64,000 bases of DNA from Verrucomicrobiota bacterium (GCA_039815375.1 JBCBZJ010000003.1:64001-128000); one strand, 5' to 3'. Shown: positions 49,638 to 64,000, counted from the stretch's first letter. Notes: generated from the letters alone by a model not told the origin. Program-made: numbers and translations.

Positions 49638-52600
49638 ATGGATAACGACGAAGCTAATCCAGAGGAATCCGGGCGAAGCGCGCAGAATCGTGAGGGCCTG
49701 AAGCATCGTATTCTGAAGCCCGGAGATAGCTTTGGGAATTTTCGTGTCGTCAAGTGCATCTGCGCTGGGCTGATCACCAACTACTATCACATGCAGCATA
49801 TCCGTGACTTGCACGATGTGACAGTTGGTATTTTCCATTACCGCGCTGCCAAGGATACCAAATTCTTGAAGCGCCTCGAAGCTCTCCAGAAGAAGGTGAA
49901 AACTCTGGACCACGAGGGCGTGCCGAAGGTTCATGACTACACCGAGATCGACGGGCAGGCCTGTATCTTTCTGGATCCGATTAAAGGGCAGACGCTTAGC
50001 CAGTATTTCGATGCTCACGGAAGTCCAGGAAAGGAAGGTATGGGGGTCGAAATTACTACCCGCATACTTGCGCACTTGCTCGGCCTTCTCGGTTACGCGC
50101 ATTCTCATGGGCTCGATCATCGTGATCTTGATTCGGATCTGATTTTTATTCAGGAAGACGGCTCGGTCCGTGTCTTGGGTTTTGGCATTAAGGCAGCGCT
50201 CTCGATCGAGCTCTTCGAATCAATTGTATCGGCATCAGTTTCGCCTCTCTTCGCGAACAAGACTGTTGGCCGCTTGAACTCGTTCGATATCATGAGTCCC
50301 GAGTATCAGTCAGGTCTGCCCGAAGACACTCGTGTCGATGTCTACTGTGCAGGTGTTATCGGTTACTGGTTGCTCACAGGGCAAAAACCGGAGCATCCGA
50401 ATTTGTTGATGCCGACAGCTCTGGTAGAGGGCGTTCCTTCGCGTTGGGATGCGTTCTTCACGCGGATCCTCGAACGAAATCCGGACTTGCGGTTTCAGTC
50501 GTGTAAGATGGCCTTGCTCGCGCTTAAGGAGACCGACGATGAGCCGGAATCGGAACGCGCGGGGGTTGTCCAGCGACAGATCGACCGCATGCCGGTTCCG
50601 AAGAGTATTCGTGCGCGAGGAGAGCTTGCGACGCGCATCTACCGTTTGACGGTAATCGGTTGCATCGGATTGACGCTGACTGCGTTGGCTTCGTTCTTTC
50701 TGCGCGTTTCGTTCATGGAGGAGAAAGTCTATACTAAAGATGTCGCGCAGCGTATTGTTGAAGGTCAGGACTCAAACCTGCGGATAAAGGTTCAGCCCCC
50801 TGTCGCGAAACTAGTCTTCAAAGGCTTTACCGAGAGCTTTATCGCAAACGAAGGACTCTTGGAACTGCGAGTTGCCCCGGGGAAGTATGAGGTTCGTGCA
50901 ACGGCCCCCCACCATTTCGAAGATGTGCAGACTATAGAAATTGCAGCGGCTGAACCAGGATTTGTCGCTGACCTTGAGTTTGAACTGAAACCGGCATGGA
51001 CAGATATCCAGATACGTTCCGAGCCCGGCGCATCTGTTTCAGTAGTAGACACGCGTGATACTGAAATCGAACTCGGTTTTACCAACGAGGAGGGGATCTT
51101 TTTTCTAAAAAAAGGACTGTTTGCAGGGGTTTATCAAATCGTCGTCAAAAAAGAGGGTTACCAGCCAACTGTTCTGAAAAACCAGGAATTGGATTCTGGC
51201 GAAGTCTCTGTGATTGAGGTAGAGTTAGCACCACTGCCCGCCAGTTTGGCAGTTCGCACCACCCCTACCGGAGCGCGTATCCTGATCAACGATATTGATG
51301 TCGGCCTTTCTCCTGCTACGGTCGACGACATCATACCGAGCGATCAGTATCTCATCGTTGCTCAGTTGGATGACTACCGTGCGATGGATCGCCGAGTGGA
51401 GATTCGTGCCGGGGAAGATATCACTGTCGACTTTGGCGAACTCACCCGACGCTCTGCTGAGCTCAACATCGAAATTGATTTCGCCGGTCTGAGCGCCAGT
51501 GAATCTCGCCTCTTGCATAGCGACACAGTGGTGACGATCGGTGAGCTCCGTTATCCCTATAACTCCGCAGAGCTGAAGTTTATTCCAGAAGGGGAATACA
51601 TGATTCATGTCGAGCATGCCAAATATATTTCTAAAGCGGTCCAGCTTACACTCGAAGACCGGGATGTGAAGAAATTGGAATTCACCCTACTACCTCGTCC
51701 TGCTGAGGTGCAGCTTGTCCTACCCGGTAATCTGGAGCCAGCGATCCGGCTCAACAGGAAACAAATCGAGTTCACAGGTGAAGCTGTCATTATTCCCGCA
51801 AAAGAACCGGTAGAGTTCGAGTTACGTATACAAAATTATCTTACGATGGTCCGGAAATTTGTCTTGGAGCCAAACGAGAAAGTTACCTGGAATGTGACGC
51901 CGGTTCCGATTCCCGGGCCGACCGAAGGGCAAACGTGGACTATGCCTTATTTCGGCTTCAAATTTGCCTGGGTGCCGCCAGGAGAATTTACGATGGGCAG
52001 CCCGATGGTCGAGCAAGGGCGCTTGCCGAATGAAGGCCCGAAAACAAAAGTGACTTTTACCAAGGGCTTTTGGGCGGGCATCTACGAGGTGAGCCAAGCT
52101 GAATTCAGGGAAGTCGTGGGGCGAAATCCGTCTGAATTTAGAGGTGCGGACAAGCCGGTCGATAGCGTCCTGTGGCAGGAAGCGGTAGATTTTTGTAAGA
52201 CACTTACTAGAATGGAACGTGAGGCAGGGCGCTTGCCTGTGGGCTTTGTCTATCGATTACCGACTGAAGCGGAGTGGGAGTATGCGGCTCGTGGCAAGAC
52301 GATTTCACCTTTTCATTTTGGTGAAACGGCCGATGCCACCTCAGGCAATTTCCGTGGGATTTATCCGAGGGAACTCGAAGGAGGGCAACGGGCTAGCCAA
52401 ACCTATGGCAGTGAGTCAGTCGGCAGTTACAGGCCCAACGCATATGGGCTTTACGACGTCCACGGCAATATCAGTGAATGGACATTGGAAGTCTACAACG
52501 GTCGGCTTGATGGCGGCCAGGTGGTGGATCCTGCTCCTCGAACCGGAGGAAAGCGTTTTGCTGTGCGTGGTGGTAGTTGGGAAGATTTTGCGGTCCGTGT

Positions 52601-52685
52601 TCGGTCGGCTGTGCGTGAAGATGTCCGAATGGATACTGAAAGTAACGCAATTGGCTTCCGCGTCTTTATCGCACCCGAGAAGTAA
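49638..52685 (+). CDS. Ser/Thr (pseudo)kinase - TM - PEGA repeats - FGE/sulfatase-modifying-factor domain protein
   Basis: HRDL and MSPE kinase fold; one TM; PEGA-like repeats (SEPGA, TTPTGA); FTMGS, RLPTEAEWEYAARG, NAYGLYDVHGN, RGGSW and IGFR motifs. Confidence 0.85.
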   Translation: MDNDEANPEESGRSAQNREGLKHRILKPGDSFGNFRVVKCICAGLITNYYHMQHIRDLHDVTVGIFHYRAAKDTKFLKRLEALQKKVKTLDHEGVPKVHDYTEIDGQACIFLDPIKGQTLSQYFDAHGSPGKEGMGVEITTRILAHLLGLLGYAHSHGLDHRDLDSDLIFIQEDGSVRVLGFGIKAALSIELFESIVSASVSPLFANKTVGRLNSFDIMSPEYQSGLPEDTRVDVYCAGVIGYWLLTGQKPEHPNLLMPTALVEGVPSRWDAFFTRILERNPDLRFQSCKMALLALKETDDEPESERAGVVQRQIDRMPVPKSIRARGELATRIYRLTVIGCIGLTLTALASFFLRVSFMEEKVYTKDVAQRIVEGQDSNLRIKVQPPVAKLVFKGFTESFIANEGLLELRVAPGKYEVRATAPHHFEDVQTIEIAAAEPGFVADLEFELKPAWTDIQIRSEPGASVSVVDTRDTEIELGFTNEEGIFFLKKGLFAGVYQIVVKKEGYQPTVLKNQELDSGEVSVIEVELAPLPASLAVRTTPTGARILINDIDVGLSPATVDDIIPSDQYLIVAQLDDYRAMDRRVEIRAGEDITVDFGELTRRSAELNIEIDFAGLSASESRLLHSDTVVTIGELRYPYNSAELKFIPEGEYMIHVEHAKYISKAVQLTLEDRDVKKLEFTLLPRPAEVQLVLPGNLEPAIRLNRKQIEFTGEAVIIPAKEPVEFELRIQNYLTMVRKFVLEPNEKVTWNVTPVPIPGPTEGQTWTMPYFGFKFAWVPPGEFTMGSPMVEQGRLPNEGPKTKVTFTKGFWAGIYEVSQAEFREVVGRNPSEFRGADKPVDSVLWQEAVDFCKTLTRMEREAGRLPVGFVYRLPTEAEWEYAARGKTISPFHFGETADATSGNFRGIYPRELEGGQRASQTYGSESVGSYRPNAYGLYDVHGNISEWTLEVYNGRLDGGQVVDPAPRTGGKRFAVRGGSWEDFAVRVRSAVREDVRMDTESNAIGFRVFIAPEK

Positions 52686-52691
52686 TACAAG

Positions 52692-52975
52692 CAAACCAGT
52701 ATTGCCGTCGAATGGTGGGAGCGACTGGAGTCGTTCCGAGGCCGAGGGCCAACAAGACCGGTCCGGCTGGTGTCGGAACCGGACCACCGAAGGTGAGACT
52801 ACAGCTCACAGACAAACCAGTATTGCAGTCTAATGGTGGGAGCGACTGGAGTCGTTCCGAGGCCGAAGGCCGACAAGACCGGTCCGGCTGATGCCGGAAC
52901 CGGACCACCGAAGGTGAGACTACAGCGCACAAACAAGCCAGTATTGCAGTCTAATGGTGGGAGCGACTGGAGTCG
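52692..52975 (-). repeat. tRNA-linked direct repeats (121-bp period), each ending in the 3' 21 nt of tRNA-Val
   Basis: tggtgggagcgactggagtcg occurs at 52713, 52834 and 52955 (the tRNA itself); the intervening 100-bp units are near-identical. Confidence 0.9.
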
Positions 52976-53031
52976 AACCAGCGACCTCATCCATGTCAAG
53001 GATGCGCTCTAACCAACTGAGCTACGCCCCC
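52955..53031 (-). tRNA. tRNA-Val(GAC)
   Basis: GGGGGCGTAGCTCAGTTGGTTAGAGCGCATCCTTGACATGGATGAGGTCGCTGGTTCGACTCCAGTCGCTCCCACCA folds as a cloverleaf with anticodon GAC and encoded CCA. Confidence 0.97.
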
Positions 53032-53045
53032 ATTCCATTACGGAA

Positions 53046-53081
53046 GGGGCGGAATAAAGGTTTACGACACTGCTGAAGCAA
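53046..53081 (-). promoter_or_regulatory. Putative sigma70 promoter of tRNA-Val with GC-rich discriminator
   Basis: TTGCTT-N17-TTTATT followed by CCGCCCC on the minus strand. Confidence 0.5.
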
Positions 53082-53125
53082 GAAAAAATTTGCGCTATCA
53101 CTTCGATACGCGAAGCATGTGAGGC

Positions 53126-53926
53126 ATGAATATCGTCCGCGTCCAAAATACAGATGGCAGTATTTGCTATGGGTGTGAGCATGGCCGGCAGGTTTTACGA
53201 ATCGAGGGTGACGTTTTCGGTGAATTTGCAGTGACGAATGATGTACTGGATCCGGTGAAGCGCTTAGCCCCGATTGAACCGGCTGCGATCTACGCCATCG
53301 GGCTGAACTATCGCGAGCACGCTGCTGAAATGAAGGCGGAGATACCGGACCACCCTGTGGTTTTTACCAAGAGTACCACTTCGTTACTTGATCCTTATGA
53401 TCCGATTTTGCTACCTCGACATCTGCACAGCGATCAGGTCGATTATGAATGTGAGTTGGCCGTAGTGATCGGTAAACGGTGCAAGAACGTTTCCGTTGAA
53501 GACGCGCTCGATTTTGTCCTAGGCTACACCTGTGCCAACGATGTCAGCGCGCGAGACTGGCAAATGTTTCATGGGGGTGGGCAATGGATCAAGGGCAAGA
53601 GCTTCGATACCTTTTGTCCGCTTGGCCCTATGCTTGTGACTGCAGACGATGTGCCGGATCCGCAAATCCTGCCGATTCGAACAATTCTAAATGGACAGAT
53701 CGTGCAGGAGTCTTTCACCGGCGATATGATTTTCCCAGTTGCGGAACTGATTACTTTTCTCAGCGGGAGCATGACTCTGCTCCCTGGAACGGTCATTCTG
53801 ACAGGAACGCCTCCAGGTGTAGGCATGGCGGCTAAACCTCAGCGTTTTCTGAAGCCGGGCGACGAGATTGTGATCGAGATTACCGGTATTGGAATGCTTC
53901 ATAACACAGTTGAAGCTGAAGCTTAA
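53126..53926 (+). CDS. Fumarylacetoacetate hydrolase family protein
   Basis: [39 protein letters not shown] and TGTPPGVG motifs. Confidence 0.92.
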
Positions 53927-54072
53927 CGAACCTCGATTTTCCAAACTCGAAATGGGGCGTGTGGGTGATTTTCCCATCAGCTCGGGAGCTGATTCAACGT
54001 TCAATACCGGGCGTTCGCATTCTTGCCTGCCTTTCTGCTCGACGCACTTTTGGGTCGCACTATTACGAGACT

Positions 54073-54858
54073 ATGTCTGCCACTGTTTTTACAATAGCGA
54101 ACCAGAAGGGCGGGGTTGGTAAGACCACCACGGCGATCAACCTCAGCTATGCTTTGGCTGAAAAAGGTGTGCGCACGGTGCTGGTCGACCTCGATCCGCA
54201 AGCAAATGCAACCAGTGGTCTCGGGTTGGAAAAACTGGAAGGTGGCAGTCTTTACGGTCCGCTTTGCGGAGAGGGTAATGCGTTGGAAAAAGTCCAGCCG
54301 GTGGGTGCGAGTGACTGCCTCTTTGTTATTCCGTCTGAAGTCGATATGGCCGCTATTGAGATCGAGCTTGTTCAGCGCGGGAATTATCTTGTCCAGTTGC
54401 GTGACGTCGTGGCCCCTTTGCGTGAGTCCGGCGATTACGATGCGATCATTCTGGATTGTCCGCCTGCGCTTGGGATGCTGTCGATGAATAGTTTGGCCGC
54501 AGCCGATTACCTGCTTATCGCCCTACAGTGCGAATACCTTGCGATGGAGGGCCTCGGCCAGATTCTCAAAGTCGTTGAGAAGCTACGTGATGCCGGTGTG
54601 AACGATGGCCTTGAGTTGGGTGGGATTCTTATGACTATGTTCGATCAGCGGACGAATCTTGGCCAACAGGTTGTCGGCGAAGTGCGGAACCACTTCGATG
54701 ATTTGGTCTTTCGCACGATGATTCCTCGCTCGGTCCGGTTGAGTGAGGCGCCGAGCTTCGGTCAGTCAATCTTCGAATATGATGCGTCTAGTCGCGGGGC
54801 GCATGCCTACCGTTATTTCGCCGATGAAGTCATTGAACGATTCAACTTGGTGAAGTAG
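54073..54858 (+). CDS. parA: ParA/Soj family ATPase
   Basis: NQKGGVGKTT, DLDPQANAT, DCPP, QCEYLAMEG and RLSEAPSFG motifs; start at ATG 54073. Confidence 0.9.
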   Translation: MSATVFTIANQKGGVGKTTTAINLSYALAEKGVRTVLVDLDPQANATSGLGLEKLEGGSLYGPLCGEGNALEKVQPVGASDCLFVIPSEVDMAAIEIELVQRGNYLVQLRDVVAPLRESGDYDAIILDCPPALGMLSMNSLAAADYLLIALQCEYLAMEGLGQILKVVEKLRDAGVNDGLELGGILMTMFDQRTNLGQQVVGEVRNHFDDLVFRTMIPRSVRLSEAPSFGQSIFEYDASSRGAHAYRYFADEVIERFNLVK

Positions 54859-54925
54859 TAATGCATGCTCTCATGCGTTCGAGATACTTCCAAAGTATTG
54901 CGATTGCGCGCTTCCATCATGAGTC

Positions 54926-55837
54926 ATGTCTGACCTGATTCCTCATCTTGACTCGTTCGTCAGTCACCTTTCGCTGGAGCGACGGGTTTCGGATTACACG
55001 GTCCGAAACTATCGTGCAGCAGTCGAGAGCTTCGTGGAATGGTTGATTGAAACCGGGAAATGGAAGAGTGACTTTGGATCCGTGAGTTCGACCCTGGTCC
55101 GCTCATTCTTGGTCGAGAAGGGTCGGCGGTTGGCGCGTCGAACATTGCACAACCATGTTTCCGGTCTGAGGTCTTTCTATCGCTATCTCCGGGTTCAGGG
55201 TGTCGTGGAGTCGAATCCGTTTACCGGGGTAACCTTGCCGAAACTGGATAAACCCCTGCCGAAGTTTCTAACCGAAGCCCAAATGACGCAGCTGTTGAAT
55301 GCGCCTATTACAGAGTGGAAAGATGGCAAACTCTGTGAGTTTGAAGCCTTTCGCGATAGTCTTGTTCTTGAGCTGCTTTACGGAGGAGGGCTACGCGTTA
55401 GCGAGCTTTGCACATTGACGCATGCCAATGTCGATCTATCTCAAGGGGTGGCTCGCGTTTTCGGCAAGGGGCGGAAAGAGCGCCTTTGTCCACTCGGCCC
55501 GATGGCCACGCAGTGCCTTAAGCTCTTCATCAAACGTTTCGATCTGTGTGCGGATTTGGACGATTATGTGGTTTGCCATCGAAACGGAAAGGCAATGCAG
55601 CCTCGCCAAATCCAGAAGTTATTGAAGACACATCTTGCCGCGGCGGGTCTGCCTCTCGATATGACGCCACACAAGCTGCGCCATTCCTTTGCCACGCACA
55701 TGCTTGATCGCGGTGCCGACCTCCGTGCCGTTCAGGAGCTACTCGGGCATGCGAATCTGTCGACCACCCAAGTCTACACCCACGTTTCGATTGCCCGGCT
55801 GAAGGAGGCGCATAGGCAAGCCCATCCGAGAGCCTAA
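54926..55837 (+). CDS. xerC: Tyrosine recombinase XerC
   Basis: GLRVSEL, GKGRKER, HKLRHSFATH, LRAVQELLGHANLSTTQVYTH and AHPRA motifs. Confidence 0.9.
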   Translation: MSDLIPHLDSFVSHLSLERRVSDYTVRNYRAAVESFVEWLIETGKWKSDFGSVSSTLVRSFLVEKGRRLARRTLHNHVSGLRSFYRYLRVQGVVESNPFTGVTLPKLDKPLPKFLTEAQMTQLLNAPITEWKDGKLCEFEAFRDSLVLELLYGGGLRVSELCTLTHANVDLSQGVARVFGKGRKERLCPLGPMATQCLKLFIKRFDLCADLDDYVVCHRNGKAMQPRQIQKLLKTHLAAAGLPLDMTPHKLRHSFATHMLDRGADLRAVQELLGHANLSTTQVYTHVSIARLKEAHRQAHPRA

Positions 55838-57753
55838 GCCTCGGCTTCTTCTATAACCGGTGTATTCGCAACCAGGATACGTTTTCGTGCCTTGTGATTC
55901 TCTTCGCGGCCGAAGTCACTCCTCCAGTAGCGGTAGGGAGTCAGGACGATCGCAATACAGATCAACTGGCTTAGCCAGAAAGCCATGAGCCAGTAAAAGC
56001 CGCTGTCGGTGAAGCCGTAGCTGTGTAGTCCGACCCCGAGTAAGTTCGTGCCGAACCAGGACCATGCCGTGATGATATTGCCGCAGATCGCGAGTGCCAT
56101 GAGTCCACGTTCCTTGCAGATGCCACCCCAGCGTGCGTGCAGATAGATCGCGCCCATGATGACGATCATCAAAGCACCATTTTCTTTTGGGTCCCAGCCC
56201 CAGAAACGGCCCCAGCTTTGGTCCGCCCAGATGCCGCCGAGAATTGTGCCGACAAGGCTAAACAGAACCCCGAAACAAGTGATGCCATAGACCATCGCGC
56301 TCAAAGAGCGGGCACTCTTTTTATCGAATTTCTTGCCGAATACACCAATAAATCCAAAAACCACACCCAGCGCACCGGCGAGGAACATCGCCGAATAACC
56401 GAAGGTGATGACCGTTACGTGTGTCGCTAGCCAGAAATTCGAGTCGAGCACGGCACGCATCATTTCGAGCGTGTCACCACTCATCGCGAGGTGGTGTGCA
56501 ACAATCAGTGTGGAGAAGCCAACTAAAGAGGCCATGGCTGCACCGATGCCGTTCTTGAAGAACTTTTCAATGATCGCACCGAGGAGGACCGCGCCCCAAC
56601 CAACGAATACCGCTGAGGAGTAAAGATTCGTCACGAAAACGAAGTAGCGTTCCTGGATATACATCCGTGCGACGAGCCCGAAAGTGTGGATGATAAACGA
56701 GAGCACGAGCACCCAAAACGCGGCGAAACTGAGTTCTTTTGGCCAACGCAGCCAACTGATACAGACGATCAGGAAGATTAAAACATAGAGCGCCATCGCA
56801 AGTCCGAAGGGCTGCATGCCATTAAAAACACGCTCGAAATGGACTCGATTGATTTCATCCGGAAAATCGACGATGAACCGCTGGCGAAGCTGGTTTACTG
56901 TTTCGTTGAACGTGGCAGGATCACCGGAGCGGTAGGACATCGTAAGGCTCGCATAGCTGATCACATAGGGGCTGAGGGATCTCGTTTGCACGACGTCTAG
57001 TAGCTCTTGGCCGATATTCTTCCAATTCGCCATCGGGTCGACGGGTGGAGGAGGTGGCACGACCCGTAGCTGGGCGGTCTGGGAGAGACGAAGGTAGTCA
57101 TCACCATAGTCGACGAAGCGCTGTAGCACCTCGTTATCGTAGTCTTCCCCCGCTTGCTGCTTCTGCAGCTCAGCCAAGCCCGGTTGAACGGTTGCCTGAT
57201 AGCTGGCATACTCATCGACAAGGCGGTCGAGGCGTTCTGCATCGCCGATCGGATGTAGCGAATGCATGATGCGGTGGTAAAGAATCAGGCCGTTGTTGAG
57301 GTCAACGATTTGCTGGTCGTAAGCGCTTCGCTTTCGGGGCTCCGGATCTACCTTAGCGTAGAGGCTGAGGATGTCGTTGAAGTGGGGTCGTAGATCATTA
57401 AAGGAGTAATAGCGCTTTGATTTTTCCGCGAGTCCGGGAAGGCCTAGGTCATCCGGAAATTCGATCTTAAAGATGCGGTAGGTGTCGGCGAGCTCTGGCT
57501 TCATCGTGAGATCCATGAACCACTGGATCGGCGTGATGAAATTGCCTTCGGGTGTTTCGACCTTTTGTCGTGCGGAGAGAATGAGCAGCGTATTGCGGGC
57601 AACTGAGTCGAGTGGCTTGATGCGGCCACCGACTTGCACGGGCAGTTCGGAGAAGCTGTCGATGTCGAACTCTGAGGGCTCTCCGGCTGGCCGGAAGTGC
57701 CGTCCAAGTATCAGAAGGACCAGAGCAGCAACGATGATGACGATCTTTTTCAT
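55834..57753 (-). CDS. ccsA: Cytochrome c biogenesis protein CcsA/ResC (system II) with large periplasmic N-domain
   Basis: GRIKPLDS, WLATHV and GGIWADQSWGRFWGWDPKE (WWD domain), GLHSY. Confidence 0.92.
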   Translation of the reverse strand: MKKIVIIVAALVLLILGRHFRPAGEPSEFDIDSFSELPVQVGGRIKPLDSVARNTLLILSARQKVETPEGNFITPIQWFMDLTMKPELADTYRIFKIEFPDDLGLPGLAEKSKRYYSFNDLRPHFNDILSLYAKVDPEPRKRSAYDQQIVDLNNGLILYHRIMHSLHPIGDAERLDRLVDEYASYQATVQPGLAELQKQQAGEDYDNEVLQRFVDYGDDYLRLSQTAQLRVVPPPPPVDPMANWKNIGQELLDVVQTRSLSPYVISYASLTMSYRSGDPATFNETVNQLRQRFIVDFPDEINRVHFERVFNGMQPFGLAMALYVLIFLIVCISWLRWPKELSFAAFWVLVLSFIIHTFGLVARMYIQERYFVFVTNLYSSAVFVGWGAVLLGAIIEKFFKNGIGAAMASLVGFSTLIVAHHLAMSGDTLEMMRAVLDSNFWLATHVTVITFGYSAMFLAGALGVVFGFIGVFGKKFDKKSARSLSAMVYGITCFGVLFSLVGTILGGIWADQSWGRFWGWDPKENGALMIVIMGAIYLHARWGGICKERGLMALAICGNIITAWSWFGTNLLGVGLHSYGFTDSGFYWLMAFWLSQLICIAIVLTPYRYWRSDFGREENHKARKRILVANTPVIEEAEA

Positions 57754-57859: not shown

Positions 57860-59203
57860 TTACTTCTCTGCCTCCCTTTTCTCTGCCTTTATTTTCTCCT
57901 CGCGGGCCATTTCCAAGCTGTCGACAAAGGTCGTTGGCATGCCTTGGAAGTTGCGTTTAATCAGCTCGTCGTCTGCTAGAGCATTTAGTGAAAACTGAAG
58001 ACCGTGGCAGTTAATGCACGCGCTGCGGACCATCTTTTCGTTGGGCCGAAGGCTGTTGTTCTGGTTGTGGTCGACTATAGTGAAACTCTCGCCAAACTTG
58101 CTTCGTTCCACTCGGGGCATGTGGCAGGTTGCACAGCTGACGGCTTCACGGTCTGAGCGGAGGCCTTGCTTCGATTGCACAAAGAGTTGGAAGTGCTTTG
58201 AATTCTTGTAGGCGAGAGAGTGCTCGTCGTTGTGACAGTTGAGGCAGGCATCGACTGCTGCATAGTTTGTGCTAAAGCGGTGCGAATCATGGCAGGATGC
58301 GCAGGTCAGTTCGTTGTGGGCGGCTTCAGGCCGCATCGGAATCCTGGCCATACCTGGAGTCATTGGACTGAGTCCGAGTGCGAGGCGCATCCCGTGCTTT
58401 CCTTCGAGGAAGCCTTTGGTCTCGTGCTCGTGGCACTTTTGGCAGGATTCATAGCCGGGGTTGTCGTGCCAGAGCATTTGCCCAGTCGAGGGTTCTTCGA
58501 TCTCATGGCAGCTCGTGCAGTTTACCCCGGCTGCAGCATGTGCTGTGGATGACCAGTCATGCAAAATTTGGCGGGTGTATTCGACCTCGCCGGGCATGTC
58601 GGCGTGGGCTTGTGCGAGTGCTTCGCCTTCGTGATCATTGTAAAAGTCCCGGGCCCGGCTTAGTGCAATCTGCTTGAAATTTGGTTCGTCGAGGTGGTCG
58701 GTTAGGAAGCGTTCGTAAAGACTGCTGTTGTCGTGGAAATTATGGCATCCTGCAGTTGCGCAGGTGTCGAAGCCCATCCCTGCATGAGAAGGACGTTGCT
58801 CTCCGATCTTCTGGTGGCAGTGGTAGCAGTAGTCGGTTGGCAGGGTGACGCCCATATCGCGAGTGATTTCCGACTGGTGTTCACGGTGGCAGGTAATGCA
58901 CTTGGTGGCCTCGATTTTTTCGAGGCGAGAGGCATTGCGCGGGTCTTTAAATTTGATCACCGGGTGCGAGTCGTCGATGCGCTCGAGCTCCTCGGCATGG
59001 CACTTTGTGCAGGCATCCTGTAGAACGCCCATGTTGGGTGTGTGGCACTCGTTGCAGGACATTTCGATTTGGTGGTGTCCATGCGACGTCTCACCCGGGA
59101 TGAACAGGTCTTTCGGGCCAAGGGAGATGGAATAGCCCAAATACGTAATCAGGCCGATTAGCCCAAATATCCAATAGCGGTATTCTAGGAAGGTCTTTTT
59201 CAT
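57860..59203 (-). CDS. Membrane-anchored multiheme cytochrome c (10 CXXCH + 1 CX4CH)
   Basis: CNECH, CTKCH, CITCH, CYHCH, CATAGCH, CTSCH, CQKCH, CASCH, CLNCH, CATCH, CINCH; N-terminal TM; ATG overlaps the upstream TAA. Confidence 0.9.
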   Translation of the reverse strand: MKKTFLEYRYWIFGLIGLITYLGYSISLGPKDLFIPGETSHGHHQIEMSCNECHTPNMGVLQDACTKCHAEELERIDDSHPVIKFKDPRNASRLEKIEATKCITCHREHQSEITRDMGVTLPTDYCYHCHQKIGEQRPSHAGMGFDTCATAGCHNFHDNSSLYERFLTDHLDEPNFKQIALSRARDFYNDHEGEALAQAHADMPGEVEYTRQILHDWSSTAHAAAGVNCTSCHEIEEPSTGQMLWHDNPGYESCQKCHEHETKGFLEGKHGMRLALGLSPMTPGMARIPMRPEAAHNELTCASCHDSHRFSTNYAAVDACLNCHNDEHSLAYKNSKHFQLFVQSKQGLRSDREAVSCATCHMPRVERSKFGESFTIVDHNQNNSLRPNEKMVRSACINCHGLQFSLNALADDELIKRNFQGMPTTFVDSLEMAREEKIKAEKREAEK

Positions 59204-61179
59204 TACCACATGTAGACCTTAGCGATGTGAAACCCGAGAAGGATGGGGTAGGGCAGGAAGAAAATGATATGCAATTTGGTCGCATAGTCGCGCAGCTTAC
59301 GCCCGAGAGGGCCACTGAGCTTTTTTTCGGTTGCCAGTGCAAGGGCGGCAAGCCCGCCGGCGAGATTCATGCCGAGGAAGCAGATCAGCAGCCAGAGGTT
59401 AAGGTTCTCGCCGAAGTTAAGTCCGGTATGCATGAAAATCCCTCCAAGCGTGGCGAGCCCAAGCCAGGAATGAGCCGCGCGCCAAAAGCCGAAGTTGCCG
59501 AAATTGAGCCATTTGAAGCGCTTGCGGGCGGAGAGTAGTAGAGCTATGGCCGAGAGCCCGGCTATGGTGTAGCCCGTGATTTGCTTCGTCACCGTTTCCT
59601 GCCAGATCGTGCTGAAGCGGTAGTAGGCCGATTGCACGGTCTCGGCTACAGGCATGGGTGGCATGGCGATACCCGTCACGATCAGGATAATGGCGATACA
59701 GGCTGCGATTTGGAGAATAAGCCCGCCTTTCTGAGAAGCGACGTCCTTAAAAGAGTCAGCCGATTCGCCGACAAAGCAGGCGATCTGTGGAAGGCAGGAA
59801 CCGCACACGCTTCCAGCCCCGGTTTTTGAAGTCAGTGCGCCGACACTGTCGCAGCCTTCACAGGCTGCGGTGCGCAATACTCCGCAGGATGTCCGGGTGC
59901 AGTTACAAAGGATCGCCTCTTCGGGCCAGTCGAGTGGTGAACTCTCTTTTGAAATCCCTTGCAAGTCGCCACTGCCACGGAAGTCGTTCAGATGCCTCAC
60001 ACTGAATTTGTTCATGGCGCGAACCGCCCGTTCAATCTCAGCAGTTTGCTCCCATGAGCCGATGACAGTTGCACCGATCAGTCGGCCCCGCTTGACGACG
60101 AGGTTTCGATATTCGTTTTCTCCTCGATAGGTGTAGTATTCACCCTCCTGCATGAAGTCGCCGAATACGCTTACTTCGAAGCCTAGGAGCTTGAGGCGGC
60201 AGGACTCGTCACTGCCCCGGTAATAGTATCTTTTTTGACCAGCGAGGCGGTAGGCGAGCACATCTGCCATCTCGTAGCAGGGCGCAACAAGGCCATATGC
60301 TTTACCATGGTGTGAGGCGCATTCGCCGATCGCGTAGATCTGATTGTCGGAAGACTCAAGTCGGTCGTTGACGATGACTCCCCCGTGCACTGCGGTTTTC
60401 AGACCAGCGTCTTGTGCCAATTCATCACGAGGTGTAACGCCGATTGCAATGACGACCATGTCCGCGTCCGCGGTCTCGCCGTCGTGGAAATTCAAGTTCA
60501 GTTTTGAGCCGTTTTCTTTGATCGCCTCAGTTCGAGTTTTGAGGCGGATCTGTAGGTGCCGCTTTGCGAGTTCTTTAAGCAGATAGCCACCGCCGTCTTC
60601 TGTCAGTTGTCGACTCAAGACAGTGTTCGCGGACTGAATGATGCTCGTCTCGACCTGCGACCGGTTGAGAACATCTGCGATTTCTAGCCCTAGAAGTCCA
60701 CCGCCGATGACGACAGCGCGTTTCGCAGTTTTGGCCGCTTCCTGGATGCGTTCGACATCTTGTGTGGTTCGGTAGGTGTAGACCCCGGGAAGATCTGTGC
60801 CCGGGATTTTCGGCATGGTTGGAAGGCTGCCGGTCGCGAGCACGCAGCGTGAGTAAGGCACCTCGTTGCCGTCGGCATCAACTGCCATCGATTGCTTTGG
60901 ATCAAGGCGAGCAATCTTGTTCGCCGTGCGCAGTTCAATGCCGTGCTCTTGATACCAACCTGAGGCAGCGAGCAAAAGTTTTTGTGCATCCTTCCACTCG
61001 AAGTGCTTCGTCAAATTAACGCGATCATAGGCTGGGAGACTTTCTTCTCCGTAGACGACTATGGTTGTCTTCTCATGGACTCCAAGTTTGACGAGCTGTT
61101 GGCAGAAGCGCCAGCTTACCATGCCATTGCCGATGATTAGCAATGGAGCCTCTACTTTGCTGGCCTTTTTTTTGGTCAT
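59203..61179 (-). CDS. NirB-like NAD(P)H/FAD oxidoreductase with BFD-like [2Fe-2S] and C-terminal heme-b-type membrane domain
   Basis: IIGNGMV, AYDRVNLT, LATGS, VIGGGLLGLE, AIGEC, LKLLG; CNC...CGSC; then ~5 TMs with two H-X13-H pairs; no siroheme domain. Confidence 0.85.
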   Translation of the reverse strand: MTKKKASKVEAPLLIIGNGMVSWRFCQQLVKLGVHEKTTIVVYGEESLPAYDRVNLTKHFEWKDAQKLLLAASGWYQEHGIELRTANKIARLDPKQSMAVDADGNEVPYSRCVLATGSLPTMPKIPGTDLPGVYTYRTTQDVERIQEAAKTAKRAVVIGGGLLGLEIADVLNRSQVETSIIQSANTVLSRQLTEDGGGYLLKELAKRHLQIRLKTRTEAIKENGSKLNLNFHDGETADADMVVIAIGVTPRDELAQDAGLKTAVHGGVIVNDRLESSDNQIYAIGECASHHGKAYGLVAPCYEMADVLAYRLAGQKRYYYRGSDESCRLKLLGFEVSVFGDFMQEGEYYTYRGENEYRNLVVKRGRLIGATVIGSWEQTAEIERAVRAMNKFSVRHLNDFRGSGDLQGISKESSPLDWPEEAILCNCTRTSCGVLRTAACEGCDSVGALTSKTGAGSVCGSCLPQIACFVGESADSFKDVASQKGGLILQIAACIAIILIVTGIAMPPMPVAETVQSAYYRFSTIWQETVTKQITGYTIAGLSAIALLLSARKRFKWLNFGNFGFWRAAHSWLGLATLGGIFMHTGLNFGENLNLWLLICFLGMNLAGGLAALALATEKKLSGPLGRKLRDYATKLHIIFFLPYPILLGFHIAKVYMW

Positions 61180-61199
61180 ATCTTTGCGTTGATACGAAA

Positions 61200-61233
61200 G
61201 AGGACGACTAGTTTGTTGAAACCAGTCGCCCTC
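61200..61233 (-). terminator. Intergenic stem-loop after the globin gene
   Basis: On the minus strand gagggcgactgg-N10-ctagtcgtcctc pairs fully with G-U wobbles, followed by TTTCG. Confidence 0.5.
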
Positions 61234-61271
61234 TGGAGAGAATCGCTCTTAACCGTTGGGCTGGATTTGCA

Positions 61272-61643
61272 CTATTCGCGGCCAAGAATTGCTTCGCGCG
61301 TGCTTTCTGCGATTGCAGCTGCTTCACCGATCAGTTCGTCAGGCACACCCAACTCTACAAGTGTTCCTCCCAAGTTTTCCATGACGGCGTCGAAGTGGGT
61401 GTCGTTCAGACCCATTTCGTCAACGAGGCGCTTATGTGCAGCCTTCATGCCGCGGCCGGAGTATTTATTGGGCCGGCCGAAGGCAACTGTTAGGAATTTT
61501 TTTTGATGGTCCTTCAGGGTGACAATTGGGATGCCTTCGAAGAAGTGTTGAATGCGGTCGTCAGCGAGGACCTTTGAATAAAAAAGATCTACGGCCGCAT
61601 CAACGGCGGGTTCTCCGCCGATTTTTTCGTATAGTGTGCTCAT
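61272..61643 (-). CDS. glbN: Group I truncated haemoglobin (trHbN/cyanoglobin-like)
   Basis: LYEKIGG..AV...V..FY..V..D..I..FF, HQ..FL..AFG, Y.GR.M..AH and HFDAV motifs; no signal peptide. Confidence 0.9.
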   Translation of the reverse strand: MSTLYEKIGGEPAVDAAVDLFYSKVLADDRIQHFFEGIPIVTLKDHQKKFLTVAFGRPNKYSGRGMKAAHKRLVDEMGLNDTHFDAVMENLGGTLVELGVPDELIGEAAAIAESTREAILGRE

Positions 61644-61679
61644 TCCTGTTATGTGTTTGTTGTTATGATGGTTTAAGGT

Positions 61680-62084
61680 CTAACGACTGGCATGGACCAT
61701 AAAGTCCACCGCGGCTTTGACCTGTTCGTCTGTCAGATAATCATATCCGCCTTTTGGCGGCATCTGTAGCATAAGCGGGCCGGAGAAACCGTTGATCGCA
61801 TGATCGTGCAATGTCTCCCGCCCCTTTGCGATGCGCGGTGCCCACTCTGCCTTATCAGCAATTAGGGGTGCGCCCCCGAGTCCACTTTTGTGGCAGCCGG
61901 TGCATGTCTTAAGCCAAACTTCGCGACCTTCGATTAAGTTAGCATCCGTTAACTCAATAGACATAGCATCAAACGGCGCAGGCTTGGGCTTTGCGCCGTG
62001 GCCACTGTGTGTGCTCGTTGAGTCCTCGCCGCCGCAACCGCATAGGGCCATGACGACGAGGACGATGAGTGTTACTCGTTTCAA
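61680..62084 (-). CDS. Cytochrome c5-family lipoprotein
   Basis: Lipobox LCGC; CTGCH, GAP...W..R...G...L..HAI.G and MPPKGG motifs; start uncertain (62084 TTG or 62120). Confidence 0.85.
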   Translation of the reverse strand: MKRVTLIVLVVMALCGCGGEDSTSTHSGHGAKPKPAPFDAMSIELTDANLIEGREVWLKTCTGCHKSGLGGAPLIADKAEWAPRIAKGRETLHDHAINGFSGPLMLQMPPKGGYDYLTDEQVKAAVDFMVHASR

Positions 62085-62137
62085 GTCTTTTGGTGTGCTT
62101 GGTAGAAAAGAACCAAGCACGTTTGAGAGTTGAAGCG

Positions 62138-62731
62138 TTAGCTATCCATCGGGATGCGGATAACCACACCACCCATGACATCGCCGAGTTCAAAGTCAGT
62201 CTTAGGACTGTCTTTGTGGTCATTGTGGCATGTCACACAAACAGGTGCGACAGCGACATCAGCGTAAACGGCCGTGAAGTATTTCTTACCTCCAAGCTCT
62301 TCTTCCCCATAGTAGGGAGCGGAGCCACCGTTTTCGGCGACAAACTCCAGTCCTGCTTTTTCAACATCAGTCTGGCCTTCGGCGTTAGACTTGTTGATCG
62401 GCCAGAGGGACTGGAGCGAGTAGCTGAACCAAGCGTCCTTACTTGCTGTCAGCTCAGCGCCCATTCGGAACATCTGTGCTGGAAGCGGAAGGGTTTTATC
62501 TTCGGTCCATTGTTCGCTTGCTTTGATCACCTTCTCCTCTTTTACGAGGCGGTTCACAACCTTCTGTGTGTAAACGGTGCGATCGTTTTCGAGCACCATG
62601 TGAAGCGCGTCAGTGAGTTTCTCGAAAGAAACTCCCGCGGTAGTGGCTTCGCTTTCGCCGCAACCCACAAAAGAGAGGGAAGACGCGGCGATTGCGGCAG
62701 ATGCTGCCACAGCAATAACTGCTTTTTTCAT
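62138..62731 (-). CDS. Tll0287/DUF3365-like c-type heme lipoprotein
   Basis: Lipobox FVGC; LPLPAQMFR, YSLQSLWPIN, YFTAVYAD.AV..CVTCH and GDVMGGVVIRIP motifs. Confidence 0.8.
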   Translation of the reverse strand: MKKAVIAVAASAAIAASSLSFVGCGESEATTAGVSFEKLTDALHMVLENDRTVYTQKVVNRLVKEEKVIKASEQWTEDKTLPLPAQMFRMGAELTASKDAWFSYSLQSLWPINKSNAEGQTDVEKAGLEFVAENGGSAPYYGEEELGGKKYFTAVYADVAVAPVCVTCHNDHKDSPKTDFELGDVMGGVVIRIPMDS

Positions 62732-62792
62732 ATTCGACTGTAATTTTAGGTTCGTCCTGTTCTCATAGAATATAAGAACTGAACCTTAAACA

Positions 62793-62807
62793 GCACTACA
62801 GGTGCCA
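62793..62807 (-). promoter_or_regulatory. Putative sigma54 promoter of the heme/NirB-like operon
   Basis: Minus strand TGGCACCTGTAGTGC has GG-N10-GC spacing, ~62 nt before the ATG at 62731. Confidence 0.65.
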
Positions 62808-62937
62808 CTGCGTGCCAATTGGCTGTATTCATGCAGCTAAAGCGCCATAAATATTTTACGCTAGATCATGAATTTTGTTCATGCGCGGAAATGCTTCCAG
62901 TCGCAGGAAATTCAAGCGCCAGCAAGGCTTTGAGGGC

Positions 62938-63999
62938 TTACGTTTTTCTACTAAGGAATCTCTGGAAGTGCATGCCGAATTGAACACACATGCCAAGCCC
63001 CATTAGAAGCACGCTCACGTAGGGTAGAATCCATCCAGGATTCTTTACCACTTGAAAGATTGATGTTTTATCCTGATTGGCGAAAGACGCCTGATAAAAG
63101 GTGAGACCTTCGTAGCGGAGCGGGTGATTCATGTAGATCAGCGACTTTTGGTTCTTGGTTGAATCAGTGTGATGGATCATCACTTCGCTGGAGAAATTGA
63201 ACGGAATTTCTGTCCCGGGATACTTTTCGTGGCTAAAATCGATCAATTCTAACTCAAAGGGATGGTAGTAGCGCCTGAATCTTAGAGCGATCTCCCAGCT
63301 CTTTTCACCGAGGTTGACCATTTGTGGTGGGAAGCGCTCGTCGATCAAATTGGAGACAAGCCATGTGCCAATGACTCCATCCGGTCCGGACACCTCGATG
63401 TAGGCTGTGGCCGCATTGAATTCACCTTCGGCATAGGTCTTCTGTCGCGGCTCCACGAAAATATTCATCCGGACGGCAGCGCCTCGATTTGCTAAATTCC
63501 GGCTGTCTGGTTGTTGGCCTGTGCCGACGTTTGCGTTCGGGTAGTAGCGAACGGTTCGTATACTCAGTGGAGATTCGGGCACCTCCATCACTTTACCAGG
63601 CTTGAGTAGATCGACAGGAATAGAGTGAACCATGTCATGGTCGGGGTGAGTCCGATCTACAAATACCAGCTCATTGTCGCGAGTTGTCTCGGAGTAGTTG
63701 TTACGCCCCCCTTCGTCAACGGGCATCTGGCTTTCTTCTGAAACGATGTCTGTGAGCAGTTCGCTGACGAGCAGAAGGACGAGGCCGAAGTGAACAAGGA
63801 AGATGCCACTCTTCTTAAAAGTCAGCTTGAAGCGTGTGACATGGGCCGCAATGAGGTTGATGAAGAGAAGGCCGCCGAGCAGATAGCCACCGGGCATCGG
63901 GATACGCAGCCAGAAGAGCTGGTCATACAACGGGAACTCCTGCGGGTAGGACCAGATGACAAGGAAGCTCTCGAAGTAAAGTTTCTGCGTGTGCCAAAT
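62938..63999 (-). CDS. resB: Cytochrome c biogenesis protein ResB/CcsB (5'-truncated by the window edge)
   Basis: Frame is open to the window end; PGG...LL..NL.AAH, GIFLVHFG, YPGT..P.NFSS and MNHPLRYEG.TFYQASF motifs. Confidence 0.85.
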   Translation of the reverse strand: MWHTQKLYFESFLVIWSYPQEFPLYDQLFWLRIPMPGGYLLGGLLFINLIAAHVTRFKLTFKKSGIFLVHFGLVLLLVSELLTDIVSEESQMPVDEGGRNNYSETTRDNELVFVDRTHPDHDMVHSIPVDLLKPGKVMEVPESPLSIRTVRYYPNANVGTGQQPDSRNLANRGAAVRMNIFVEPRQKTYAEGEFNAATAYIEVSGPDGVIGTWLVSNLIDERFPPQMVNLGEKSWEIALRFRRYYHPFELELIDFSHEKYPGTEIPFNFSSEVMIHHTDSTKNQKSLIYMNHPLRYEGLTFYQASFANQDKTSIFQVVKNPGWILPYVSVLLMGLGMCVQFGMHFQRFLSRKT

Positions 64000-64000
64000 A

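Follow-up and report, generated by a model that had tools for sequence, protein, structure and literature searches.

A stretch of DNA of 64,000 nucleotides from Verrucomicrobiota bacterium (GCA_039815375.1 JBCBZJ010000003.1:64001-128000, hereafter the window, from whose first letter coordinates without another label are counted) raises the question of what is served by an operon, lying with its promoter at 57860..62807, in which a NirB-like flavoprotein fused to a membrane domain is encoded together with an 11-heme cytochrome c, a heme lipoprotein, a cytochrome c5-like protein and a globin. The first-pass annotation had proposed five co-oriented genes whose products form an electron wire from NADH to the periplasm, linked to the metabolism of nitrogen oxides and replacing siroheme nitrite reductase. 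The analysis showed that all five open reading frames are present on the minus strand, spanning 57860-62731, that the anatomy of the wire can be accepted with high confidence, and that the replacement of the siroheme enzyme is not borne out. The operon very probably belongs with the nitrate regulon, and we give about an even chance to the reading that it encodes an NAD(P)H-fed periplasmic scavenger of nitric oxide (NO) or related by-products of nitrate, accessory to nitrate assimilation.

The fusion protein (59203..61179, minus strand), which would stand at the cytoplasmic end of the wire, was assigned from TIGR02374, motifs and a model as a NirB-N-terminal-like FAD/NAD(P)H domain followed by a BFD [2Fe-2S] domain and a five-helix membrane domain. 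Only positions 1-462 of the 794 in the NirB model TIGR02374 were matched, with 369 bits in comparison to a cut-off of 578; the FAD/NAD domain and the first BFD domain are thus shared with NirB, whereas the siroheme/[4Fe-4S] half is replaced by the membrane domain. The AlphaFold model has a mean predicted local distance difference test (pLDDT) value of 92 and places five membrane helices after the BFD domain, and the structures matching the FAD domain were NADH-dependent ferredoxin and rubredoxin reductases (Z 36-38, root mean square deviation (rmsd) 2.2-2.7). All four BFD cysteines (C425, C427, C459, C462) are invariant in the 62 aligned sequences, as are two histidine pairs, H570/H584 and H637/H651, whose members lie 14 residues apart on predicted helices. 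Judging from the basic loops, each pair has one histidine close to either face of the membrane, as in a di-heme b protein that spans it, and we infer from this that two hemes b are bound.

Two histidine pairs on two predicted membrane helices are also found in the NOX/ferric reductase/MsrQ family (PF01794), whose profile cut-off the fusion does not reach. Profile matches of the membrane domain were all weak, namely PF01794 in 2 of 48 sequences (best E 0.0025), DUF4405 in 28 and PF01292 in 9; no family match over cut-off, no PDB sequence match and no Atlas feature match of 0.9 or more was obtained for this domain, and fold searches with the whole fusion returned matches to the FAD domain in every case, masking the membrane domain. 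In MsrPQ and in NOX and ferric reductases, two histidine-paired b hemes carry reducing power across the membrane to an acceptor outside. The present fusion differs from these systems in that a glutathione-reductase-type flavoprotein and a [2Fe-2S] domain are fused to the membrane module and a c-type multiheme chain would be the acceptor. A relative in genome G584 (L119:8186-11895) has the same membrane domain and BFD motif joined to an FNR-type FAD/NAD module and two cNMP domains (order cNMP-cNMP-BFD-FNR-membrane domain), with a divergent 11-heme cytochrome behind it and a Ser/Thr kinase-like gene beside it. Two different NAD(P)H modules are therefore found on one membrane domain, which favours an outward flow of electrons.

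The gene of the fusion overlaps that of the cytochrome at 59203 through TAATG, confirming the overlap noted earlier. The cytochrome (57860..59203, minus strand; 447 residues) is membrane-anchored and carries ten CxxCH motifs and one CX4CH, i.e., 11 heme sites, arranged by alignment as an N-terminal five-heme module and a six-heme module with the HAO fold. In its structural model the C-terminal half has a pLDDT of about 90 and the N-terminal half of 50-60. The top 11 Foldseek matches were all HAO, HDH, HAO-like or IhOCC structures (best E 6.5e-4, TM score about 0.30), VIA-align gave a middling Z of 7.2 (rmsd 4.0, 190 residues aligned) over residues 200-422 with the N-terminal half unmatched, rows 7-10 of the Atlas structure matches were counted toward the HAO-type fold, and hhalign against four HAO sequences gave 96.2% locally and 97.7% globally. 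In the alignment, hemes 6-11 of the cytochrome correspond to HAO hemes 2, 3, 5, 6, 7 and 8, their spare histidines included, and HAO heme 4 falls in a gap. The heme-stacking fold and the motif order of HAO are therefore present, and the five-coordinate heme 4 is not; this is the catalytic heme of HAO according to the available part of the source (PMC8042395). No cysteine was found in the heme 4 segment in any of 120 close homologs or 61 diverse rows, and no CxxCK motif in any of the 120. The protein ends 47 residues past its last heme histidine in comparison to about 180 in HAO, so that the long C-terminal region with the Tyr cross-link is missing; the extra five-heme module and the membrane anchor further distinguish it from the HAO/NrfA/ONR/OTR/MccA superfamily.

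Two catalytic heme positions are possible in the HAO/NrfA/ONR superfamily, as described in the available text of PMC9250108. The first of these is deleted in the cytochrome. The second is occupied in c554, MccA and OTR by a five-coordinate heme which we take to be inserted between the positions of H222 and C229, and only six residues lie between these two here, in a protein whose N-terminal model half is of low confidence. NrfA and ONR, in the accessible part of PMC10716430, have five and eight heme sites, with the catalytic first (NrfA) or fourth (ONR) site usually CxxCK; the present protein has 11 sites and scored 18.7 bits with PRK11125 in comparison to 595. Spare histidines were counted at 43, 80, 109, 140 and 157 in the five-heme module and at 222, 270, 308, 328, 337 and 379 in the six-heme module, each conserved in 53-61 of 61 diverse rows, with histidines provisionally assigned to hemes by alignment. 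Because there are 11 spare histidines for 11 hemes, a closed wire is the simplest reading, and the cytochrome is likely a wire rather than the NrfA that some databases call it. This weakens the proposal that reduction takes place on the multiheme protein itself, the catalytic heme of its fold family being missing and the conserved histidines being just enough, and the protein appears to add to the HAO/NrfA superfamily a branch with neither catalytic heme kept. Alternatively, Met391, conserved in 58 of 61 diverse rows, could ligate one heme and leave His328, which aligns with the histidine of HAO's conserved Asp-His pair, beside an open site. Two further candidates were rejected: the CX4CH heme as the mark of a catalytic site, since plain CxxCH occurs there in 13 of 60 diverse full-length relatives, and H41 and H170 as surplus histidines, which are kept in close relatives but in only 6 and 41 of 61 diverse rows.

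To determine how far the arrangement is conserved, gene neighbourhoods were compared in a species-level genome collection, in which 422 stretches encode a relative of the cytochrome; the best 80 were kept and, with the source genome, make up 81 loci. Several absences in the locus counts are due to contig ends, and kin are not independent in any count. The lipoprotein is encoded in 76 of the 81 loci, the fusion in 75, a globin in 65, the c5 cytochrome in 35 and an Rrf2 regulator in 15. Synteny is kept across phyla, so that the arrangement is not due to chance, and record titles of the carriers include Verrucomicrobiota, Pseudomonadota, Planctomycetota, Poribacteria, Dadabacteria, Entotheonella and Myxococcales, among others. 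Cultured carriers include Alcanivorax sp. DSM 26293, Cerasicoccus frondis and Spongiibacter. The c5/c-555-like monoheme protein (61680..62120, minus strand; assigned by sequence similarity), one of the two partners that had been suggested for the wire, is optional. In a protein database, 3,166 clusters at 90% identity matched the cytochrome at E<=1e-30 among 8,000 scored candidates, and 213 matches were found in a library at 50% identity. The cytochrome was present in 7 of 201 Opitutales genomes and in 22 of 350 genomes of a class-level gammaproteobacterial sample centred on G035, an Alcanivorax record.

The lipoprotein (62138..62731, minus strand) is a stand-alone monoheme protein of the DUF3365/Tll0287-like (sCache_heme) type with 197 residues, a lipobox at Cys24 and one CxxCH. 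It scored 66.3 bits with PF11845 in comparison to a cut-off of 24.1, and the CxxCH was kept in 70 of 70 sequences; the Pfam family, this motif and the stand-alone periplasmic form are shared with other stand-alone sCache_heme proteins. It has no cysteine beyond those of the lipobox and CxxCH, so the Cys/His axial ligation of Tll0287 is absent and its fixed gene context sets it further apart; its profile reaches Tll0287 only at E 1.3, with the distal ligand not alignable, and the invariant Met87 is a candidate for that ligand. Mean pairwise identity was highest for the lipoprotein, at 66%; the two cytochrome modules reached 63% and 54%, and the FAD and membrane domains 40%. Nearly invariant positions other than C, H, G and P made up 25% of the lipoprotein in comparison to 12%, 5% and 5%. 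Of the 201 Opitutales genomes, those with its subfamily are exactly the seven that have the cytochrome, and five others have only distant DUF3365 matches. Judged by this conservation, the lipoprotein is the most conserved part of the system and likely its reactive site. A predicted complex of cytochrome and lipoprotein scored 0.29, with the mark at 0.32, and was used neither way.

The globin (61272..61643, minus strand) has no signal peptide, its best PDB match is cyanoglobin (E 1e-38), and its similarity to cyanoglobin, THB1 and HbN places it among the group I truncated hemoglobins, for some of which NO dioxygenase activity is established. Across the loci the globin is of the 3/3 single-domain type in 53 and truncated in 12, and the two types never occur together.

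The link to nitrate and nitrogen-oxide metabolism proposed in the first-pass annotation was supported by the promoter region and by the neighbouring genes. A sigma54-type -24/-12 promoter, TGGCAC-N5-GTGCT, was found by consensus scan at 62792..62807 on the minus strand, reading from 62807, in agreement with the earlier claim of sigma54 control, and is one of eight intergenic consensus matches ahead of a gene in the source genome. It lies 75 nucleotides downstream of a candidate operator palindrome, CATGAA-N5-TTCATG (62867..62883, strand not assigned). Six sites with one mismatch or less were found by genome scan, a total near chance expectation, so that placement alone is informative: of the two perfect copies, one is that upstream of the operon, from which the pattern was taken, and the other lies ahead of a porin of the nitrate-assimilation (nas) cluster, and a copy with one mismatch lies between lysR and the nas operon. 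This cluster is apart from the operon, spanning the ends of contigs C14 (69042-79169) and C43 (4378-8565) with the break inside nirA. It looks complete, with lysR, an NrtA-like sensor, nrtABCD, nasA, nirA, a CysJ-like flavoprotein and the porin. In genome G190 the operon directly adjoins lysR-nrtS-nrtABCD-nirA-nasA, and three promoters there, nrtS/lysR among them, are marked by the palindrome; in G116 the palindrome precedes nrtA and nirB, so that it is common to the operon and nitrate-assimilation genes in three genomes.

Among the 17 Verrucomicrobia loci in which the operon has the gene order of the window, the palindrome was found within 260 nucleotides upstream of the lipoprotein gene in 12, in comparison to 0.065 expected from random windows; in six of these 12, a distance of 74-75 nucleotides separates it from the best sigma54 match downstream. 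Where the genes stand in the other order, an exact TGGCA-N7-TGC occurs upstream of the fusion gene, at most 300 nucleotides away, in 13 of 47 loci against a background of 2.3%. At least one of nrtA, nrtB, nasT, nasA, nirA or full-length nirB was found within 10 kb in 30 of the 81 loci (20 of the 47 with full flanks), NasT is nearby in 12, and nas genes or an NsrR-like Rrf2 gene lie near the operon in 44. The LysR of the nas cluster is the likely protein to bind the palindrome. A second LysR gene with a sigma54 site, at C37:103102-109243, heads an ABC transporter and a cyanase-like gene as judged by eye, and has no nitrate palindrome.

The idea that the operon replaces the siroheme enzyme predicts that carriers lack NirA and NirB, and the opposite was observed. 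The source genome encodes a NirA of which the C-terminal 371 residues alone scored 557 bits in comparison to a cut-off of 523. Genomes of 50 of the 80 loci were searched, and NirB was over cut-off in 26, NirA in 21 and either of them in 41, with a NasA-like match in 45, a few of which may be formate-dehydrogenase-like. All seven cytochrome carriers in the Opitutales are among the 38 NirA-positive genomes of the 201; five of the seven share coordinates with genomes of the 50-genome set, so the counts overlap. In the class-level sample NirB was present in 145 of 351 genomes, a base rate which alone is affected by the unpublished G437 counted in it, and in 20 of the 22 carriers. Among the nine carrier genomes without either enzyme over cut-off, two have 1.7-1.8 Mb and are probably partial assemblies, and one has a sub-threshold NirA adjoining its nitrate reductase. 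The operon is nested within nitrate assimilators, most of which are without it.

On this background, the path that we infer for electrons would run from NAD(P)H through FAD, the [2Fe-2S] cluster and the two membrane b hemes to the 11-heme wire and from there to the heme of the lipoprotein, which would bind and reduce NO (or nitrite or hydroxylamine) in the periplasm, with the globin turning cytoplasmic NO into nitrate. Outward electron flow from NAD(P)H spends proton-motive force and does not conserve it, and therefore detoxification or nitrogen salvage fits better than respiration; the line would also give aerobes a donor of lower potential than ubiquinol. The source genome, which is 99.9% complete, gave no match to Hmp, Hcp, NorV, NirK or NirS, and its three COX1-family proteins read as oxidases by sequence and context. 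The exchange of one globin type for another, the NsrR-like regulator in 15 loci, the precedent in Bradyrhizobium described below and the lack of matches to NO enzymes point, indirectly, to NO as the target. Mutual exclusion with flavohemoglobin was also considered and is uninformative, Hmp being present in 1 of 50 carriers but in none of the 201 Opitutales. A preprint on another stand-alone sCache_heme protein (bioRxiv 10.64898/2026.02.01.703092) reports, in its available part, a six-coordinate nitrosyl form, fast release of NO, autoxidation giving superoxide and a potential of 123 mV, and states that what stand-alone members do is an open and challenging question.

Several observations weigh against NO scavenging. 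The same preprint, as far as its available part goes, found that the protein binds NO weakly and read it as an electron carrier, so its evidence may be said to cut both ways, such a heme being able to react with NO and the protein nevertheless looking like a carrier; the lipoprotein may likewise be one more carrier with the real acceptor elsewhere. Nitrogen limitation and nitrate, rather than NO, appear to govern the operon: with reference to the NsrR consensus gATGyAT-N5-ATrCATc (PMC1274295), a near-consensus box with one mismatch was found in only 1 of 47 upstream regions (L079:7834, a Neptuniibacter record, upstream of the operon's sigma54 promoter), and two adjacent Rrf2 proteins scored 119 and 141 bits in comparison to the NsrR cut-off of 182, close to their RirA scores. 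The source genome has no Rrf2 gene beside the operon. The operon is present in only 7 of the 38 Opitutales with NirA, so that nitrate assimilation can do without it. Loci L035 (9463-11943), L043 and L046 (9470-11931), from Dadabacteria/Thermodesulfobacteriota records, have a stand-alone four-histidine membrane protein of 173-177 residues with the cytochrome and lipoprotein, the flavoprotein and globin being absent from these loci, and in two of the genomes, G024 and G031, no NasA, NirA or NirB match was found at the thresholds used. In the G584 relative the lipoprotein, globin and nas genes are all absent nearby. In L014 (3282-4657) and L079 (12314-14086) a Fer2-FAD-NAD reductase of its own stands behind the truncated globin, of which L079 has two copies. 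As a separate observation, globin and reductase in these two loci may represent a split flavohemoglobin.

Among the alternatives to a scavenger, the one that survives best is an additional nitrite reductase in the periplasm, which would make ammonium with electrons from NAD(P)H and act alongside NirA/NirB as a reserve or when oxygen is low. Members of the HAO/NrfA/ONR superfamily reduce nitrite or NO in vitro according to the available part of PMC9250108, control by sigma54 and the nas palindrome would suit such a role, His328 aligns with the HAO histidine, ligation by Met391 could free one heme site, and nine of 50 carrier genomes have neither canonical enzyme over cut-off; with the catalytic heme position deleted, no CxxCK in the homologs, as many histidines as hemes, the canonical enzymes in most carriers and some of the nine exceptions doubtful, we consider this reading unlikely. 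Similarly doubtful is a split NADH-driven N-oxide reductase for aerobes, in which the HAO-fold cytochrome, its catalytic heme lost, would have become a reservoir of several electrons, the lipoprotein heme would be catalytic in trans and the flavin/[2Fe-2S]/di-heme b protein would bypass the quinone pool, periplasmic NO, nitrite or hydroxylamine being turned into ammonium and salvaged in thousands of nitrate assimilators.

It is improbable that the operon is a redox valve or oxygen sink, passing surplus NAD(P)H to periplasmic O2 in the manner of NOX, possibly with superoxide that quenches NO, and shielding the reductases of nitrate and nitrite, while the globin would buffer O2. The paired-histidine membrane module resembles the hemes of NOX and ferric reductases, the spacing of its pairs found here and the apparently closed state of all carriers in the wire would agree with this, and so would the superoxide formed when reduced sCache_heme proteins autoxidise, as described in the available part of the preprint (bioRxiv 10.64898/2026.02.01.703092). 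Nitrate assimilation is already an electron sink, however, and a second, co-induced one is unexpected; the genome already has three heme-copper oxidases, and the polar residues of the lipoprotein are unusually conserved for simple autoxidation. A very small chance is left to a periplasmic reductant for housekeeping during growth on nitrate, for instance to mature c-type cytochromes or to reduce Fe(III) ahead of iron uptake. In 5 of 81 loci the operon is flanked or interrupted by system II biogenesis genes, of which the source genome has single copies, and the adjacent Rrf2 proteins score nearly equally for RirA and NsrR, but the ccs link is limited to one Opitutales clade, the globin is left unexplained, and no iron transporter recurs among the neighbour clusters annotated, which are part of the total. 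The least probable is an inward line, by which a periplasmic nitrogen compound such as hydroxylamine would be oxidised and its electrons sent to the membrane or cytoplasm, since the closeness of the fold to the oxidative HAO/HDH enzymes and the possibility that the versions with the membrane domain only exchange electrons with quinone are set against the missing P460 heme and Tyr-cross-link C-terminal region, the uphill reduction of NAD+ by hydroxylamine-type donors and an FAD domain nearest to NADH-dependent reductases of ferredoxin and rubredoxin.

In comparison to known systems, the claim that the operon matches none of NirBD, NrfA and NOR held, with no match over curated cut-offs, and its two large proteins fail the defining tests of NirB, NrfA/ONR, HAO and the ferric-reductase family. 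The nearest parallel to the preferred reading of an NO scavenger accessory to nitrate assimilation is in Bradyrhizobium, where nitrate assimilation generates NO that is handled by a globin and a flavoprotein, according to the available part of PMC4724949. This Bjgb-Flp pair, from the NasT-controlled narK-bjgb-flp-nasC genes, shares with the operon a globin and flavoprotein under nitrate-assimilation control beside a siroheme NirA; its globin is single-domain and deals with NO as a by-product (PMC4724949). Compared by description only, and as far as the available text goes, Bjgb-Flp differs in having no membrane di-heme module, multiheme cytochrome or periplasmic lipoprotein, and Flp is proposed to feed NasC (PMC4724949). 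The undecahemes OmhA, OccP and UetJ stand in gene contexts unrelated to that of the cytochrome by the available descriptions, and the OccP, Uet and Ferrigenium nonaheme/hexaheme clusters, compared in the same way, differ from the operon.

No description of the operon was found in open-access full text, subscription papers being outside the scope. By the counts above it is common, and it looks like a branch of bacterial nitrate assimilation that has gone unrecognised. If NO or hydroxylamine is indeed consumed, it would be a hidden sink of reactive nitrogen in marine and soil aerobes, and it provides a concrete, testable context for stand-alone sCache_heme proteins. Some database clusters of the cytochrome are named 'NrfA- nitrite reduction protein' or 'ammonia-forming nitrite reductase', and names of this kind would inflate annotation-based counts of nitrate ammonifiers. 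For clusters P0006, P0052, P0059, P0104 and P0106 the sources call the family NrfA or formate-dependent nitrite reductase c552, despite the missing catalytic heme.

On either side of the operon lie genes of system II cytochrome c biogenesis, each single-copy in the genome: a resB/ccs1-like gene (62938..64000), which runs past the end of the window, and a ccsA-like gene (55834..57753), both on the minus strand and of interest as context only. Biogenesis genes of this system are inserted inside the operon in three relatives (loci among L001, L004, L005 and L007). Farther away, the region 49638-55837 of the window encodes, as judged by eye, a 1015-residue kinase-like protein that has a membrane span and ends in a sulfatase-modifying-like domain, together with fumarylacetoacetate hydrolase-like, ParA-like and XerC-like recombinase genes. 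Elsewhere in the source genome, a 704-residue protein with eight CxxCH motifs is encoded at C11:147751-149865, and an alternative-complex-III-like operon followed by a CcoNO-like oxidase, again by eye, at C37:189861-201487.

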